Positions 1,781-13,071 of a stretch of DNA of 14,377 nt are shown piece by piece; the first letter of the stretch is position 1; every line of letters begins with the position of its first letter. The stretch covers positions 1 to 14,377 of IMG/VR virus record IMGVR_UViG_2675903352_000015. One strand, written 5' to 3'. Both the position numbers and the translations under genes were made by a program. The notes below the pieces were generated by a model. It worked only from the letters and a program-made list of their open reading frames with translations. It was not told the origin of the DNA and made no database searches. The DNA comes from a virus (taxonomy: Duplodnaviria; Heunggongvirae; Uroviricota; Caudoviricetes).

Positions 1781-2863
1781 TCATTTTCTCTGGCTGATCT
1801 TTACCGGATAACCATCCCGAAGATCAATTAAGTGCTCCGGTTCAGAAGCAAACCATGCATAAGATCCCCACGCCAATTCTGGTATTGCCTTTTTAAAAGG
1901 CAGAGCACTTCTGTCAATAAATGCCGTAAGGAATGCAAGATTTTTCTCGCTGAACCCAGCGTCAATAGCCAAATGAGTGAGAGTAACTTTTCGTTCCCTG
2001 TTTATAGGCCCATCTGTCGCAACTACCTCAGTGAAAACTACAAGCATATCCGAACCCGTTCGGTCCTCTCCCAAATCAATCAAAATAATATCTGGAAGTG
2101 CTTTTGAGGCATCAATATTCAGCCCCAATGCTTTTGCCAATACATCATCCTGAGCAACAACTTTATTCCCAGATTCAGACAACCAGAGCACAGTTGGATT
2201 CTTAAGAAAATTAGGAGCAAAAACTTCGATGACGGCCTTAGCTATTGTACTTGACGGGCCCGGAGCTAAAGTTCTCTTCTCTCCATTTGGGAAAGTGACG
2301 ACTACGGCATCAGCAGCAATCACTGCCCCTGATTTCAATAAACGCAATCTAGCAAGAGCGGCTTTGTTCAAATGATTTTCCTGCCAGGAACTTATTGCAC
2401 TCAGCAGCGAATCTCCTTCAAGCCCAGCATCAAAGAGTGCTGCAAAAGAGCGATTCAAACTGTAACGAGGATGAGAGGATGTGGTGGGTATACCTTTACG
2501 CTCAACAATTGCATTGCAAGGTATTAGGCCATTTTTTATAGTTTCATCACGTATTGGCTCACGCGTATTTTCCGCATACCATGCATCAGCAGGCCTTATC
2601 TTTTGTTTAGAGAAAGTCATCTTTACCCAACTTTCTCTGGACGCATCATCAGTAAGAGCAGCCTGTGAATCTCCCATACTTACAACCTGGCTGGGCCTTA
2701 TCCATCGCCCCAGCCCCTCAACCGCACCAGCATAAAACATGACAAAAATTGTTTTTGCAGCTATTTCCCGAATTAAATATCCACGATTCTCAGTCCCTTC
2801 AGGGAAAATTAATGGTAATCTTTCCCGGATAACATTCAATGGGGGAACAACAGGCAGATTCAT
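1781..2863 (-). CDS. putative type II restriction endonuclease (resembles BsuBI/PstI family, from memory)
   Basis: 360-aa ORF directly downstream of the methyltransferase on the same strand, with ATGA start/stop overlap at 2860..2863; AT-rich composition; size and context match REases paired with Eco57I/PstI-type methyltransferases. Family assignment is from recollection only. Confidence 0.6.
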   Translation of the reverse strand: MNLPVVPPLNVIRERLPLIFPEGTENRGYLIREIAAKTIFVMFYAGAVEGLGRWIRPSQVVSMGDSQAALTDDASRESWVKMTFSKQKIRPADAWYAENTREPIRDETIKNGLIPCNAIVERKGIPTTSSHPRYSLNRSFAALFDAGLEGDSLLSAISSWQENHLNKAALARLRLLKSGAVIAADAVVVTFPNGEKRTLAPGPSSTIAKAVIEVFAPNFLKNPTVLWLSESGNKVVAQDDVLAKALGLNIDASKALPDIILIDLGEDRTGSDMLVVFTEVVATDGPINRERKVTLTHLAIDAGFSEKNLAFLTAFIDRSALPFKKAIPELAWGSYAWFASEPEHLIDLRDGYPVKISQRK

Positions 2864-4692
2864 GCAATCATCACTCCATAGAAACCAGCGATAGTTCTCT
2901 CAATAATCCGTCTGTGGACGCCGGCATCAATTAACGATTGAATCTCCATCACCTGCTCCAGAGAAGGCAACGGGATTGAATTCAATTCATAGGCCGAAAC
3001 AGCAACACTTCCGCTTATACACCTGAACGCCCGATCGACAACATGCGAATTAAGTAGCATATCAATAACATCAGGGCGAACCGCAGAGAACAATCCGTTT
3101 GAATACACAATATTAATATGGTTTTCAACTACTACGCCACCAGTTTCATCTATAAATCCCTGAGGTAAAATCGCAGCTAAAATCCTTCTGTCCTGCTCCT
3201 TCGATGTTGTCCGCTGAACAAGCACACATTCAGATTTTGTCACAAGGAAACCCTGTTGTGGGGTTATATCGATATAGGGAACATGATTTTTTCTGTCTGC
3301 GCTAAAACGGAAACCAGCTGAAGTTATTGATTCCGCCCAGACTAATGGATAGCTATTTTTTCCTTTCGTCGTACGCAACTGCGACTTAAATCGATTCCAG
3401 ACTAACTGACCTGTAGAGACTGAGTATCCCAGATCAGCTAAACGCGTAGACATCTGTTTTAATACATTAAGAAAACAAGCATCATCTTTAACTCGTGGCA
3501 AAAGCCACGTTGCTCCACCTTTTTCTATATCAACATTACCTATTTTCTCAATTTTTGCTTTGTTCAACCCCTTAGGGACAAGTGAGGATACCTGGGCCCG
3601 AACTTTATGTTCTCCCGCCTTGAATGCTGTCAACATTGTTTCCTGGAGAACATCGTCAAAGACCCCATCCCTGTCAGCGACGAAATCAAGGGCATACGGA
3701 GTAGTTTTTTCGGTCAAAAGGGTTCGCAGCGCGGTGAAATACTGCCCACCAAGAAAAGAAGTTGGCGTAAGAAATGCAATAACTCCTGTTTTCTCTTTAA
3801 CCATGCGAACAGCTAAGTCGGTGAACAATCCATATAGATTTGCATGACCAAATAACGAACGAGAATATTTTTCTCTCGTTTTAATATCGAGAGTGACACG
3901 TCCGTAAGGCGGATTCCCTACCACAAGATCATAACCAGAAATTTTATCTTGCTGAAGCGCATCAGCAACAATAATTGTATCTTCAGGCAATCTACGTTTT
4001 ACCTTTACACATAGTGGCATTAGTACAGATTCGAGCAATACCAAACTCATCCAAGCCGCAAATGGATCGATTTCTATCCCCTTTAAACGACGACTGATTC
4101 TCCTCAACATCCATTCAGGGGAAGACCCCTTGTCTTTTTTTAACATTCGAATGGCTACTGGTGCCAAAAATGCACCGCCACCACACGCAGGATCAATAAC
4201 CGATGCATGAGAAAAATCAACACCAGACTTTTCAGCCAGGTCCAAGAGACGCGCTACCAAAGGTGGGGGGGTATAGTAAGCCCCCAATTCCGAACGGTAA
4301 GCGGATGGCAGCATTACCGTATAAATTGACCCAATCAGATATCCAGCGTCCTCCGCCGGAAATTGAGCAATAAGCTCACCTGTTCGTTCAGCGAGCTCGC
4401 GTGCATCACATGGAATGTCTTCTATGTAAACAGTGTGCGGTACTGCCCTCATTTTAATGCTGCTTTTTTGCTTTTTTGCAAGGGTATCCCAATATGCAGC
4501 TACGATGCTGAAGCAGTATGAGCGGGCATGCATCAACCTTGACTGCCCGGTTTTGTAATTGCCCGCATAACCTTTGGCCATGGCTTTACAAGTTTGATAT
4601 CTTTCCAGATTAGAAAACTCATTATCTGTAAAAAAATCAAAATGTTGCACATTCATAATGTAAAATCCTAATGTATCAAACATGCGGGCCAT
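2860..4692 (-). CDS. gamma-class N6-adenine DNA methyltransferase (Eco57I/PstI-like modification subunit)
   Basis: 610 aa; motif X GAYYTPP, motif I DPACGGGAFL (SAM binding), motif IV NPPYGRV in gamma-class order. Start choice is uncertain (ATG 4692 with weak SD; internal ATG at MNVQHF has an AGGA upstream). Confidence 0.85.
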   Translation of the reverse strand: MARMFDTLGFYIMNVQHFDFFTDNEFSNLERYQTCKAMAKGYAGNYKTGQSRLMHARSYCFSIVAAYWDTLAKKQKSSIKMRAVPHTVYIEDIPCDARELAERTGELIAQFPAEDAGYLIGSIYTVMLPSAYRSELGAYYTPPPLVARLLDLAEKSGVDFSHASVIDPACGGGAFLAPVAIRMLKKDKGSSPEWMLRRISRRLKGIEIDPFAAWMSLVLLESVLMPLCVKVKRRLPEDTIIVADALQQDKISGYDLVVGNPPYGRVTLDIKTREKYSRSLFGHANLYGLFTDLAVRMVKEKTGVIAFLTPTSFLGGQYFTALRTLLTEKTTPYALDFVADRDGVFDDVLQETMLTAFKAGEHKVRAQVSSLVPKGLNKAKIEKIGNVDIEKGGATWLLPRVKDDACFLNVLKQMSTRLADLGYSVSTGQLVWNRFKSQLRTTKGKNSYPLVWAESITSAGFRFSADRKNHVPYIDITPQQGFLVTKSECVLVQRTTSKEQDRRILAAILPQGFIDETGGVVVENHINIVYSNGLFSAVRPDVIDMLLNSHVVDRAFRCISGSVAVSAYELNSIPLPSLEQVMEIQSLIDAGVHRRIIERTIAGFYGVMIA

Positions 4693-7561: not shown

Positions 7562-7963
7562 ATGATGAACGCCCTAGAAGTATCTATGTACAGAATCAGC
7601 AAGCTTCTTCAGGAAACTGGATGGAGCCAGGCTGAGCTTGCCCGTAGAATTGGTGTGACACAGCAAACTGTTCAACAATGGGTCAGCGGTAAGGCAACAC
7701 CTAAAGCCTCAAGTTTGGATAAACTGGTTGAGGTTACAGGGCATCCATTGCATTGGTTTTTATTGCCTCCTGAAGAGAGGGAGCAAATTTTCACCCCTGA
7801 TACGATGAAAATTGGTCCTCGCCAACGCGAACTGCTCCAAGCTTTTAGTGCGTTTCCTGAGGAAGACCAGGAAAAAATGCTTCAAGAAATCAAAGACAAG
7901 AAAAAATCAATGGAAGAAACCATTGCCCGATGGTTAGCGGCACAAAAAAGCCGCCTGGCGTGA
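7562..7963 (+). CDS. CI/RacR-like prophage repressor (XRE-family HTH, no S24 peptidase domain)
   Basis: 133 aa; HTH SQAELARRIGVTQQTVQQWVSGKATP; sits between the two operator-bearing divergent promoters in the same arrangement as lambda cI; no C-terminal Ser/Lys autocleavage motif recognised. Confidence 0.7.
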   Translation: MMNALEVSMYRISKLLQETGWSQAELARRIGVTQQTVQQWVSGKATPKASSLDKLVEVTGHPLHWFLLPPEEREQIFTPDTMKIGPRQRELLQAFSAFPEEDQEKMLQEIKDKKKSMEETIARWLAAQKSRLA

Positions 7964-7990: not shown

Positions 7991-8068
7991 ATGAGTACAG
8001 CCCTTTCTCCGATAGTTTCAGAATTCGAAACAACCGAACAAGAAGACAGTTATAACTTCAAGCATTGA
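7991..8068 (+). CDS. possible small ORF (25 aa, acidic) downstream of the repressor
   Basis: ATG 7991 preceded by GAGGAG with a 7-nt spacer; MSTALSPIVSEFETTEQEDSYNFKH; lies between the repressor stop and the terminator. Could be non-coding. Confidence 0.25.
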   Translation: MSTALSPIVSEFETTEQEDSYNFKH

Positions 8069-8133
8069 AATTGCAAATATTGTGCATGCCCGACGACAAT
8101 TTACCTTCTCTATCTAAGCAGAACAATTTTCAT

Positions 8134-8173: not shown

Positions 8174-8213
8174 TTAAAAACTGTTGACACAAAACAGTTT
8201 TTAATTGTAGATT
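8174..8213 (+). promoter_or_regulatory. pL-like promoter with operator palindrome O2
   Basis: TTGACA (8184..8189), 18-bp spacer, TAGATT (8208..8213); perfect 12-bp inverted repeat TTAAAAACTGTT (8174..8185) / AACAGTTTTTAA (8193..8204) overlapping the -35; same CTGT-N9-ACAG core as O1. Confidence 0.55.
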
Positions 8214-8224
8214 ATTTTCACCAA

Positions 8225-8237
8225 CCCCCCCCCCCCC
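8225..8237. repeat. homopolymeric C13 tract
   Basis: Thirteen consecutive C at 8225..8237, starting about 12 bp downstream of the pL-like -10 hexamer, in the transcript start/5' leader region. Confidence 0.9.
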
Positions 8238-9564: not shown

Positions 9565-9957
9565 TCACCCTCCTGAGGGTTGGTAATTAAGGAGTTCTCC
9601 ACGGGTGAAATGGAGTGCGTGCGCCGGACACGGGTGAACATCCGGCACTGACAGTTTACTGAAAGGATATTTCTCTGAAAAGTCAGAGCATAACGCGAAA
9701 GCGCACGGCGAGGTTGCTGGTTCATAGATAGCCTGTCGTTAAATTTTCGTCGACCGTGCGCTTCCGGTTGTGGCACTCCGCGAAATGGCGCGGCGGTAAG
9801 TATGGCGGGGTTATTCCTTCCCCCGTTGAGGACACCGGGTTGTCAGGTTGACCATACGCTTAAGTGACAACCCCGCTGCAACGCCCTCTGTTATCAATTT
9901 TCTGTGACGTTTGGCGGCATCTGTTTGCCCATGAACTGATGTCCGCCCTTTTTAAAG

Positions 9958-10105
9958 TGAATTTTGTGATGCGGTGAATGCGGCTAAGCGCACGCGGAAC
10001 AGTTAAAGCTAAAAACAGTGTTATGGGTGGATTCTCTGTATCCGGCGTTAATTGTTAACTGGTTAACGTCACCTGGAGGCACCAGGCACCGCATCACAAA
10101 ATTCA
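9958..10105. repeat. 19-bp perfect inverted repeat pair flanking a 110-bp segment
   Basis: TGAATTTTGTGATGCGGTG at 9958..9976 and its exact reverse complement at 10087..10105; right arm ends 4 nt before the GAGGA SD of the ORF starting at 10123; internal segment contains GTTAAC-tg-GTTAAC. Confidence 0.85.
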
Positions 10106-10122
10106 TTGTTGAGGACGCGATA

Positions 10123-10311
10123 ATGGAAACGTTATTACCAAACGTTAATACGTCTGAAGGTTGTTTTGAAATTGGTGTCACTATCAGCAATCAGATATTT
10201 ACTGAAGATGCCATTAATAAAAGAAAACACGAACAGGAACTGCTAAATAAAATATGCATTGTTTCGATGCTGGCCCGTTTACGTCTGATGCAAACAGGAT
10301 GCAGGCAATGA
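10123..10311 (+). CDS. hypothetical small protein (62 aa) in the kil-region position
   Basis: ATG 10123 with GAGGA 7 nt upstream; the ORF-track GTG 10018 start would read through the inverted-repeat arm and is less likely. Confidence 0.4.
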   Translation: METLLPNVNTSEGCFEIGVTISNQIFTEDAINKRKHEQELLNKICIVSMLARLRLMQTGCRQ

Positions 10312-10406
10312 ATACGGCATTTGTACTCGTTCTGACTGTTTTTTTGTTTCTGGTGAACCGATTGATCTTGTTATTGACATACATGACTCAATGGAAGAAT
10401 GCATGA
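10308..10406 (+). CDS. possible hydrophobic micro-protein (32 aa, single predicted TM helix)
   Basis: ATG 10308 overlaps the upstream TGA (ATGA coupling); MNTAFVLVLTVFLFLVNRLILLLTYMTQWKNA. Below the length cut-off of the ORF track. Confidence 0.3.
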   Translation: MNTAFVLVLTVFLFLVNRLILLLTYMTQWKNA

Positions 10407-10498
10407 CTGCCGCGGCAGAGCAAAAAATTCCCGGGAACTGTTATCCTGTCGACAAAATTATTCGCATGAACAATAACGAAATCCCGGCAGGCCTTTAA
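10403..10498 (+). CDS. possible micro-ORF (31 aa; 35 aa if started at ATG 10391)
   Basis: ATG 10403 overlaps the preceding TGA (second consecutive ATGA coupling); MTAAAEQKIPGNCYPVDKIIRMNNNEIPAGL. Confidence 0.25.
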   Translation: MTAAAEQKIPGNCYPVDKIIRMNNNEIPAGL

Positions 10499-10590: not shown

Positions 10591-13071
10591 ATGAGTAAAG
10601 TCTTTATTTGCGCCGCCATTCCGGACGAACAGGCAACAGCAGAAGGCGCCAAACCTGTGGCCACTGCCATTGAAGCAGGCGACGAACGCCGGGCAAGAGC
10701 CAAATTTAGCTGGTTATTTCTGGAACAATACCCGGAAGCTCAGGACTGTGCTTATAAATTTCTTGTCTGCGAGGATAAACCCGGCATGGCCCGCCCTGCT
10801 CTCGATTCCTGGGATTCCGAATATATGCAGGAAAACCGCTGGAATGAGGAGTCGGCTTCCTTTGTTCCGGTCGACCCTGAACCGGACGCAGAAATTGTTA
10901 ACTTTAATCAGTTATCTGACGACAAGCGGGCTGCTGTCCTTGTCAGGTTCGGTACACATGAAAACATCACCGTGGATATGGTCATCAATGCAAGCGGGCT
11001 TCTCGGCGATGACGAGATGACGACTTTTGATGGACACCTCGCTGAAGCAATTATCCGGACCAGAGAAATTAACGCCATGTATCCAGAGCGTCAGATTGAG
11101 TACATCAACGATGCCAGACGTGATTTAAAACCAACAGCCAAATGGCCCGACGTTCAGGCGTATTTTCTCGAACGTAAAAAACGCATGGAAAAGGAGCGCA
11201 AAGAAGGTGGCGCATATAATTCCGTCGTCGATCTTGCCCGCGCCAGAGTCAACCGGCAAGGCACTGAAAACTCTGCAGGAAAAACTGACTCCGTAACTGC
11301 TGTCATTCGTCGCGAATACAGGCAGACATGGAAAACACTGGATGAAGAACTGGCCTACGCTTTCTGGCCTGGTGATATTGATGCCGGAAACATTGACGGC
11401 AGCATCCATCGCTGGGCAAAAAATGAAGTTATCGACAAAGATCGCGAAGACTGGAAGCGTATTTCCGCATCAATGCGCAAACAACCTGATGCCGTTCGCT
11501 ACGACCGTCAGACTATTTTTGGCCTTGTCCGTGAGCGTCCGATCGACATTCACAAAGATCCCGTGGCGCTGAACAAATACATCACTGAATACCTGGCGAC
11601 AAAGGGCGTGTTTGAGGATGAAGAAACAGACCAGAGCACTGCTGATATTCTCCAGCCGTCAGCAGCACAAACTGATGCAGTGGAAACTGAAGTATCTGAT
11701 ACCCAAAAAAATGAAAGCGCGCTGGAAACTGAACCATCTGTAGAGCGTGAGGGGCCGTTCTACTTCCTCTTCACCGATAAGGATGGCGAAAAATATGGTC
11801 GTGCAAACAAACTTTCTGGTCTGAATAAGGCGCTGGCTGCAGGGGCTACTGAAATCACGAAAGAAGAATATTTTGCCCGTAAAAACGGCACGTACTCAGG
11901 TTCACAACAAAATACTGGTGCATCTGACACGACCGCACAACCAGAGCCGGTAAAAGTTACCGCTGACGAAGTAAACAAAATTATGCAGGCAGCCAATATC
12001 AGCCAGCCTGACGCCGATAAGTTGCTTGCTGCCTCTCGCGGAGAATTTGTTGCAGGGATTAGCGACCCGAATGATCCGAAATGGGTGAAGGGGATTGAAA
12101 CCCGCGATTCTGTAAACCAGAACCAGCAAGAATCGGAACAGAACGACCAGAAAGCGGAACAAAACAGTCAAAATGCGTTACAAAACGAGCCAGAAACGAA
12201 ACAACCTGAGGCAGTAGCGCAACAGGAACCGGAAAAAGTCTGCACCGCCTGCGGTCAGAGCGGTGGCGGCAACTGCCCTGATTGTGGCGCGGTGATGGGC
12301 GACGCAACATACCAGGAAACATTCGATGAAGAGAATCAGGTTGAAGTTCAGGAAAATGATCCGGAGGAAATGGAAGGCGCTGAACATCCACACAAGGAGA
12401 ATGCTGGCAGCGCTCAGGACCACGCCAGCGATAATGAAACTGGTGAGACGGCAGATCCCTTAATTGTGGTGAACGGTCATCACGTTATCACATCCACCAG
12501 CAGAGTGTGGTACCACCTGATGATCGACCTTGAAACAATGGGAACCAACACCAATGCGCCCATCGTGGTTATTGGTGCGGTTTTCTTCGACCCACAAACA
12601 GGGGAAATCGGGCCAGTATTTTATATCGTTATCAGTCTGACTGACGCAATGAATACAGGGGCTGCTCCTGACGGTGGAACCATCAAATGGTGGCTGAAGC
12701 AGTCCAGTGAAGCCAGAGCTGCCATTTTAACAGACCAGGTAAAACTGAAGGATGCCCTTTCGCGGTTTCGGGAGTTCATCAACGAATACTCAGATGAAAA
12801 ATTCGTTCAGGTATGGGGTAATGGTGCAACTTTCGATAACGCAATTTTGCGCACCTCATACGAACGTCTGGACATCCCCTGCCCGTGGCGCTACCACAAC
12901 GATCGCGATGTACGCACAATCGTTGAGCTGGGAAAAACAATCGACTTTGATGCTAGAACCGTTATTCCATTCGAAGGCGTTCGCCACAATGCACTGGATG
13001 ACGCCCGTCACCAGGCAAAATACGTTTCAGCAATCTGGCAAAAACTGATCCCGAATCCGGTTGATTTTTAA
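10591..13071 (+). CDS. RecE-like prophage exonuclease: RecE-type N-terminal/central region and Cys4 zinc ribbon fused to a DnaQ-like DEDDh 3'-5' exonuclease domain
   Basis: 826 aa; GAGGT 8 nt upstream. Segment DKLLAASRGEFVAGISDPNDPKWVKGI...CTACGQSGGGNCPDCGAVMGDATYQETFDEE closely matches Rac RecE as I recall it. C-terminus has DEDDh motifs: MIDLETMG (D646, E648), WGNGATFDNAIL (D749), HNALDDARH (H799, D803/D804). Confidence 0.8.
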   Translation: MSKVFICAAIPDEQATAEGAKPVATAIEAGDERRARAKFSWLFLEQYPEAQDCAYKFLVCEDKPGMARPALDSWDSEYMQENRWNEESASFVPVDPEPDAEIVNFNQLSDDKRAAVLVRFGTHENITVDMVINASGLLGDDEMTTFDGHLAEAIIRTREINAMYPERQIEYINDARRDLKPTAKWPDVQAYFLERKKRMEKERKEGGAYNSVVDLARARVNRQGTENSAGKTDSVTAVIRREYRQTWKTLDEELAYAFWPGDIDAGNIDGSIHRWAKNEVIDKDREDWKRISASMRKQPDAVRYDRQTIFGLVRERPIDIHKDPVALNKYITEYLATKGVFEDEETDQSTADILQPSAAQTDAVETEVSDTQKNESALETEPSVEREGPFYFLFTDKDGEKYGRANKLSGLNKALAAGATEITKEEYFARKNGTYSGSQQNTGASDTTAQPEPVKVTADEVNKIMQAANISQPDADKLLAASRGEFVAGISDPNDPKWVKGIETRDSVNQNQQESEQNDQKAEQNSQNALQNEPETKQPEAVAQQEPEKVCTACGQSGGGNCPDCGAVMGDATYQETFDEENQVEVQENDPEEMEGAEHPHKENAGSAQDHASDNETGETADPLIVVNGHHVITSTSRVWYHLMIDLETMGTNTNAPIVVIGAVFFDPQTGEIGPVFYIVISLTDAMNTGAAPDGGTIKWWLKQSSEARAAILTDQVKLKDALSRFREFINEYSDEKFVQVWGNGATFDNAILRTSYERLDIPCPWRYHNDRDVRTIVELGKTIDFDARTVIPFEGVRHNALDDARHQAKYVSAIWQKLIPNPVDF

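Follow-up and report, generated by a model that had tools for sequence, protein, structure and literature searches.

Among described systems, the closest to the locus studied here is the dicBF operon of Qin, a prophage of Escherichia coli K-12. DicA keeps its promoter, dicBp, repressed; this repression can be relieved by urea, heat or the Rem antirepressor, or lift spontaneously (PMC10448788). By binding MinC, DicB (b1575) prevents FtsZ rings from forming, and it likewise blocks the entry of phage DNA that depends on ManYZ (PMC8835842, PMC10448788). The ydfD gene (b1576), which partly overlaps dicB, leads to lysis when overexpressed; its product is reported to bind and inhibit IspG, and DicB offsets the lysis caused by YdfD (PMC8835842). 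Intact YdfD protein is needed for lysis, with killing activity lost on removal of even 1-5 terminal residues and every terminal truncation tested failing (PMC8835842).

A second point of comparison is the kilR/ydaE/racC locus of the Rac prophage. KilR and DicB are both division inhibitors, and the Rac genes occupy a niche analogous to that of the genes described below: in each case, small genes of a lambdoid prophage are flanked by the immunity region on one side and the exonuclease/recombination genes on the other.

Here we analyse a 14,377-nt stretch of Caudoviricetes DNA (IMG/VR record IMGVR_UViG_2675903352_000015), referred to throughout as the window. An earlier note on this DNA had described a chain of three translationally coupled small ORFs at the Rac-type position, the second of them encoding a hydrophobic, putatively transmembrane peptide. 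We hold with high confidence that the chain instead represents the intact dicB and the frameshifted ydfD of the dicBF operon in a Qin-like lambdoid prophage, and that this ydfD copy is most likely null. The combination of dicB with a frameshifted ydfD is already known and is annotated as such in public genomes. The main value of the analysis lies in correct annotation: one homopolymer indel in a small gene can mimic a coupled micro-ORF chain, complete with a spurious transmembrane peptide.

The dicBF operon of a Qin-like prophage

The three ORFs lie within the dicBF operon of a lambdoid prophage resembling Qin, with a full-length ydfE. The features of the operon that frame the small ORFs are as follows.

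7562-7963: DicA-like HTH repressor gene (Pfam HTH_3 match)
8184..8213, plus strand: candidate operon promoter, TTGACA-18-TAGATT (consensus scan)
9899..9948, plus strand: DicF-like sRNA gene (Rfam RF00039, sub-threshold; alignment)
10123..10311, plus strand: dicB, encoding a 62-aa cell-division inhibitor (Pfam, NCBIfam, protein identity)
10591..13071, plus strand: gene for an 826-aa YdfE-type exonuclease, the next gene of the operon (Pfam)

The gene order runs ydfA/B/C, dicF, dicB, ydfD, YdfE-type exonuclease, xis and int, and the dicBF layout matches that of K-12 Qin. Like the Qin operon, the window combines a DicA-like repressor with ydfA/B/C, dicF, dicB, ydfD and ydfE. The neighbouring genes include a YdaT/YdaS-like pair on the minus strand, homologues of ydfA/B/C, a DUF4224 excisionase-like gene and an integrase gene. 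There are differences from K-12 Qin. As in O157-type prophages, the interval from ydfC to dicF in the window holds an additional 135-aa ORF plus a 77-aa antisense one. In addition, ydfE of K-12 Qin is a pseudogene truncated by IS2, whereas the copy in the window is full-length. Its 826-aa product carries a C-terminal Rv2179c-like 3'-5' exonuclease domain (Pfam, 1.7e-69), and YdfE_N and YdfE_C matches are recorded for the 826-aa product at this position in near-identical loci. The exonuclease homologue of the PPompW prophage differs again, being frameshifted by a 4-bp deletion.

In a whole-window megablast, the closest match in a complete E. coli genome was the CAU16175 prophage (73% coverage, 98.7% identity), and none was identical. 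The prophage also contains a restriction-modification pair on the minus strand (1781-4692), comprising a BsuBI/PstI-type restriction endonuclease (360 aa) and an N6-adenine methyltransferase (610 aa; Eco57I-like and N6_Mtase domains). This pair is present in other relatives, CAU16175 itself matching just 73% of the window.

In the segment 8170-8213, the sigma-70-like candidate promoter (8184-8213) lies inside an inverted repeat with 16-bp arms, 3' of the DicA-like repressor gene, which is where dicBp sits in Qin. Gene order thus marks it as a candidate counterpart of dicBp. Directly downstream is a C13 homopolymer (8225-8237) whose length differs among near-identical prophages, being C6 in CAU16175 and EPSSH018; it may represent a poly-C tract of variable length in the leader of the operon. 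In the near-identical CAU16175 prophage, PGAP annotates a partial 'antitoxin' remnant without its C-terminus just 3' of the repressor gene (1107-1172 of the CAU16175 locus, L001, corresponding to approximately 8006-8071 of the window).

The DicF-like RNA scores 41.1 bits against Rfam RF00039 (E 2.4e-7), under the gathering score of 48. At gathering thresholds Rfam returned nothing in the whole window, and DicF surfaced only with E-value thresholds. The window copy has the O157-type loop and one G fewer in its 5' part (UUUCU-GUGAC versus UUUCUGGUGAC) than the copies in K-12, Tritos, O157 and PK8241. A further sub-threshold Rfam match, to the gammaproteobacterial sRNA STnc100 (39 bits against a gathering score of 47, E 9e-7), covers the dicF-dicB spacer and the dicB leader (9946-10155).

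ORF1 is an intact dicB

The ORF coordinates and lengths, and both ATGA overlaps, stand exactly as the earlier note placed them. ORF1 runs from ATG 10123 to TGA 10311 (62 aa), ORF2 from ATG 10308 to TGA 10406 (32 aa) and ORF3 from ATG 10403 to TAA 10498 (31 aa), with ATGA at 10308-10311 and 10403-10406. What these frames represent is nonetheless different from what had been proposed.

ORF1 is DicB, and the gene is intact. It matches Pfam PF05358 (DicB) over positions 1-62 of 62 (E 4.3e-39, 132.5 bits, cutoff 27) and NCBIfam NF049927 (DicB) at 132.6 bits (cutoff 100), and its protein is identical to WP_000449200.1, named DicB by PGAP in several complete E. coli genomes (that of locus L002 among them). 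An SD-like GAGGA lies 8 nt upstream of the gene. As in Qin, the product has 62 residues and a full-length DicB HMM match, and the gene lies 3' of dicF and shares an ATGA overlap with ydfD. The window protein is identical to K-12 DicB at 54 of 62 positions (87%), the eight substitutions falling mostly in the C-terminal tail. At this level of identity, MinC-dependent inhibition of the FtsZ ring would be expected of the window DicB as well.

These matches, together with the gene order, rule out an identity with kilR, ydaE or racC, and the Rac placement is consequently replaced by a dicF-dicB-ydfD-ydfE order of the Qin type. Pfam scans of ORF1-3 gave just DicB, DUF1482 and one sub-threshold PspB match, with nothing resembling KilR, YdaE or RacC. 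No sequence relationship to the Rac genes was found in these scans, ORF1 matching DicB only. The downstream exonuclease is of the YdfE type, and in K-12 the counterpart of this arrangement is Qin. Phage Evi has a 'Kil protein' annotated at the matching position. The broader expectation, that small host-toxic proteins are encoded in this early-left region of a lambdoid prophage, was borne out: ORF1 is DicB and the next gene encodes a relative of the YdfD lysis protein.

ORF2 and ORF3 are two halves of ydfD

Downstream of dicB, the features that matter for the remaining two ORFs are the following.

10308..10311, plus strand: dicB/ydfD ATGA start/stop overlap (junction kept in relatives)
10308..10498, plus strand: ydfD, a DUF1482 lysis-protein gene of 191 nt, frameshifted and spanning ORF2 and ORF3 (repaired ORF, PF07358, PGAP)
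10339..10345, plus strand: T7 homopolymer, site of the 1-nt deletion (alignments)
10344..10406, plus strand: out-of-frame tail of the truncated product, LFLVNRLILLLTYMTQWKNA, plus stop (hydropathy and frame comparison)
10403..10498, plus strand: ORF3, corresponding to YdfD residues 33-63, the C-terminal domain (Pfam DUF1482)

A single gene, ydfD, accounts for both ORF2 and ORF3, each being one half of it; it is a disrupted member of the DUF1482 family. Evidence comes from an intact sister allele in strain DCE7 (192-nt gene, WP_001090221.1), which has T8 where the window has T7 and is otherwise identical in alignment. Adding one T to the window ydfD yields a 63-aa ORF identical to WP_001090221.1. 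This repaired protein matches PF07358 (DUF1482) over the whole model (positions 1-57 of 57, 6.1e-23, 80.9 bits, cutoff 25) and is 73% identical to K-12 YdfD. Fragments of the match are visible without repair: ORF3 alone scores 35.6 bits against DUF1482 (8.8e-9, cutoff 25, positions 30-57), and extending the ORF3 frame to the 50 codons that precede its stop gives 61.3 bits (cutoff 25, positions 11-57). NCBIfam holds no model matching YdfD, whether repaired or split. In the complete E. coli genomes CAU16175, PS1Thumoskin9 and EPSSH018, PGAP labels the T7 allele "DUF1482 family protein, frameshifted".

The window gene thus shares with Qin ydfD its position, its ATGA overlap with dicB, its length of 63 aa once repaired and its whole-model DUF1482 match. 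It differs in being one T short, with a frameshift after codon 12, so that no intact protein is encoded and a single uninterrupted ORF of ~63 aa is absent from the window. K-12 ydfD reads T5CT2 at the run and, unlike the T7 of the window, has no long homopolymer there.

Conservation of the reading frames points the same way. The earlier note had itself held that a lack of conservation in related elements would speak against its proposal, and as separate frames ORF2 and ORF3 are not conserved. In all six intact copies examined (DCE7, K-12 Qin, mEp460, Tritos, the PPompW prophage and an O157:H7 prophage), ydfD is a single ORF of 62-63 aa overlapping dicB. At the site of the T-run most relatives have T5CT2, reading GTTTTTCTTG (Val-Phe-Leu-Val). 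The frame of the ORF2 tail encodes an unrelated peptide in relatives, FPESQLILQSVFTGQCRSV, or contains stops, as in PPompW. Across this out-of-frame stretch, substitutions between the window and K-12 number 8, 3 and 13 at codon positions 1, 2 and 3 of the YdfD frame. As they sit mostly on its codon position 3, the YdfD frame appears to be the one under selection.

The two ATGA overlaps consequently have different standing. The first, at 10308-10311, is the only conserved junction, that between dicB and ydfD; it reads ATGA in K-12, mEp460, Tritos, O157 and DCE7, and GTGA in PPompW. The second, at 10403-10406, is a by-product of the frameshift, because the ORF3 ATG is the internal and variable Met33 codon of ydfD (Val, GTG, in the O157 and mEp460 copies) and the TGA that closes ORF2 (10404-10406) is just the first stop that the wrong frame runs into.

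The hydrophobicity of ORF2 was likewise correctly noticed. Its 32-aa product has a GRAVY of 1.25 and a top 19-aa hydropathy window of 2.71, with N17 and R18 interrupting the stretch. Its resemblance to a transmembrane peptide arises from the out-of-frame tail at 10344-10406, however, the product being 12 native YdfD residues followed by 20 out-of-frame ones whose sequence is not conserved.

The one-base deletion is present in many assemblies

Homopolymer-length errors are the commonest indel error in long-read assemblies, and the difference here is one base in a T-run. This would be consistent with an assembly artefact, in which the true sequence is T8 and the gene intact. Against this, the T7 allele is present in three complete genomes from different sources. 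Furthermore, all ten loci retrieved with the 31-aa ORF3 fragment, including NCBI draft contigs and metagenome scaffolds, carry the T7 allele: T7 was seen directly in nine of these, with 0-1 differences from the window over dicB-ydfD, and the tenth aligned to the window without gaps. In exact-protein look-ups, the 31-aa fragment was found on 34 contigs, and the exact intact 63-aa sequence on 123; the fragment also has entries in 71 index blocks, which take in metagenome scaffolds as well as NCBI draft contigs. The alternative tract is on record too, short megablast queries reporting T8 in eight further complete genomes. The remaining homopolymers of the window leave their ORFs unbroken, runs of 7 at 4135, 4265, 4630, 6980 and 11705 all lying within long ORFs that are still open. 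Given the recurrence of T7 across many independent assemblies, the deletion is real, sequencing error is rejected, and an artefact is extremely unlikely.

The count of alleles among complete genomes requires some caution. Short megablast queries across the T-run missed CAU16175 and EPSSH018, and the resulting T7:T8 count of 1 to 8 is therefore incomplete; probably, with the run masked by the low-complexity filter and a SNP close by, no 28-base seed survived. We supplemented the count with direct alignments and the exact-protein look-up.

Tract length varies among close relatives, T7 and T8 occurring on otherwise identical ydfD sequences. All T7 carriers share at least 99.4% identity across the region, with one mosaic locus having diverged flanks. 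They share one ydfD-exonuclease haplotype, PS1Thumoskin9 and the L019 locus being mosaics with other flanks. A single origin of T7, spread by descent and recombination, would be enough to explain the carriers. We found no evidence of repeated, independent switching between T7 and T8, all carriers examined representing one haplotype, and phase variation through independent recurrence of T7 is consequently unsupported.

Proposed history and consequences of the T7 allele

The alignments suggest a simple history for this allele. A C-to-T change in the lineage of the window would have converted T5CT2 to a slippage-prone T8, from which replication slippage would then have removed one T to give T7. 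Translation from the ydfD start would now yield 12 native residues and a 20-residue out-of-frame tail ending at the stop at 10404-10406, and the C-terminal 31 ydfD codons would be left without a start of their own. On derepression of the operon, the 62-aa DicB would be made, with ydfD inactivated. We infer both the direction of these mutational steps and the loss of YdfD function. Because terminal truncations of YdfD are known to abolish killing, T7 is most likely a null allele of the toxic prophage gene ydfD, in an operon that would still encode DicF and DicB. Beyond annotation, the locus would add a case in which a toxic gene of a cryptic prophage (ydfD) has been knocked out and its neighbour dicB, which shields the host from phage, has been left intact.

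Recoding and reinitiation

The frequency of T7 (34 contigs, compared with 123 carrying the exact intact sequence) makes it a fairly common allele, which shows that it is well tolerated; retained function would also fit. One way in which function might be retained is leaky recoding, with the T7 allele producing a little full-length YdfD and so specifying an attenuated, rather than dead, lysis gene. This could occur either through RNA polymerase slipping on the U7 run and inserting an extra U or through -1 ribosomal frameshifting on U_UUU_UUG. The local sequence lends itself to such a reading: the in-frame GT[T TTT TTG] fits the X_XXY_YYZ pattern in the ORF2 frame (T_TTT_TTG, 10340-10346), -1 is the shift needed, and the shifted product, TVFL|VSGEP, is the consensus of the K-12, O157 and mEp460 YdfD proteins. 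U7 runs are also prone to transcriptional slippage and indels (PMC4066793), and the T7 allele is widespread.

The heptamer, however, belongs to a weak class. U_UU.U_UU.G is not among the efficient E. coli motifs (PMC4066793), falling outside the 18 motifs chosen for under-representation and for more than 0.1% frameshifting without a stimulator, and the U_UUG tetramer gave only 1.8- to 3.6-fold over background even with a pseudoknot (PMC4066793). No stable structure follows the site either: the fold of 10347-10430 has an MFE of -13.1 kcal/mol (z = +0.73), equalled or bettered by 159 of 200 shuffles. Finally, the two-frame state has no counterpart in relatives, where a single frame, over T5CT2 or T8, encodes YdfD; the site is thus a recent deletion rather than an evolved recoding signal. 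A programmed -1 frameshift is accordingly rejected in spite of the heptamer, and leaky recoding in general appears improbable.

Along the lines of the earlier note, the split gene could instead give two separate functional small proteins, a 32-aa membrane peptide and a 31-aa soluble one, by termination-reinitiation at the second ATGA. The overlap at 10403-10406 does exist, with a weak SD-like GGAAGA 6-11 nt upstream, and a ribosome ending there could in principle reinitiate to give the C-terminal 31 aa. The best 19-aa window of ORF2 is strongly hydrophobic (2.71), and YdfD's C-terminal domain by itself is reported to have reduced, non-zero killing activity (PMC8835842). Nevertheless, N17 and R18 break the hydrophobic stretch; conservation is lacking in the tail of ORF2, which contains stops in one relative, with substitutions following the YdfD frame; and several relatives have Val at the codon where ORF3 starts. 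A collection of 15 billion proteins contains neither the 32-aa nor the 50-aa version of ORF2 in exact form, and the split state is limited to one very recent haplotype. Two functional products are thus highly improbable. Even when recoding, transcriptional slippage and reinitiation are considered jointly, it is unlikely that any of them applies.

A more far-reaching proposal is that the T8/T7 tract is a reversible on/off switch of a prophage lysis gene, or else a leaky site at which slippage or a -1 shift on U_UUU_UUG restores VFL|VSGEP, such that the lysis output of dicBF would be tuned, not lost. We regard this as very improbable. If it were true that the T-run is a functional switch or recoding site, it would tell us something new about the control of prophage-mediated lysis, and only then. 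Our preferred reading remains that of a null ydfD beside an intact dicB.

Related alleles of dicB and ydfD

Several further variants of these genes were encountered during the comparison. Alleles related to those described here are present in E. albertii (exact-protein look-up). A 67-aa DUF1482 variant is common, occurring on 204 contigs (PK8241 and TB4019; loci L010 and L011, 3412-3615). Its gene departs from that of the window at several sites of the 3' part and, near its end, has a 1-nt gap; this gap probably accounts for the longer C-terminus. The reverse state of the operon is also found: in a prophage of E. coli Z1323CEC0009 (locus L012, 3227-3414), ydfD is intact, whereas the annotation gives dicB a frameshift, a 1-nt gap falling at the site that corresponds to 10274 of the window.
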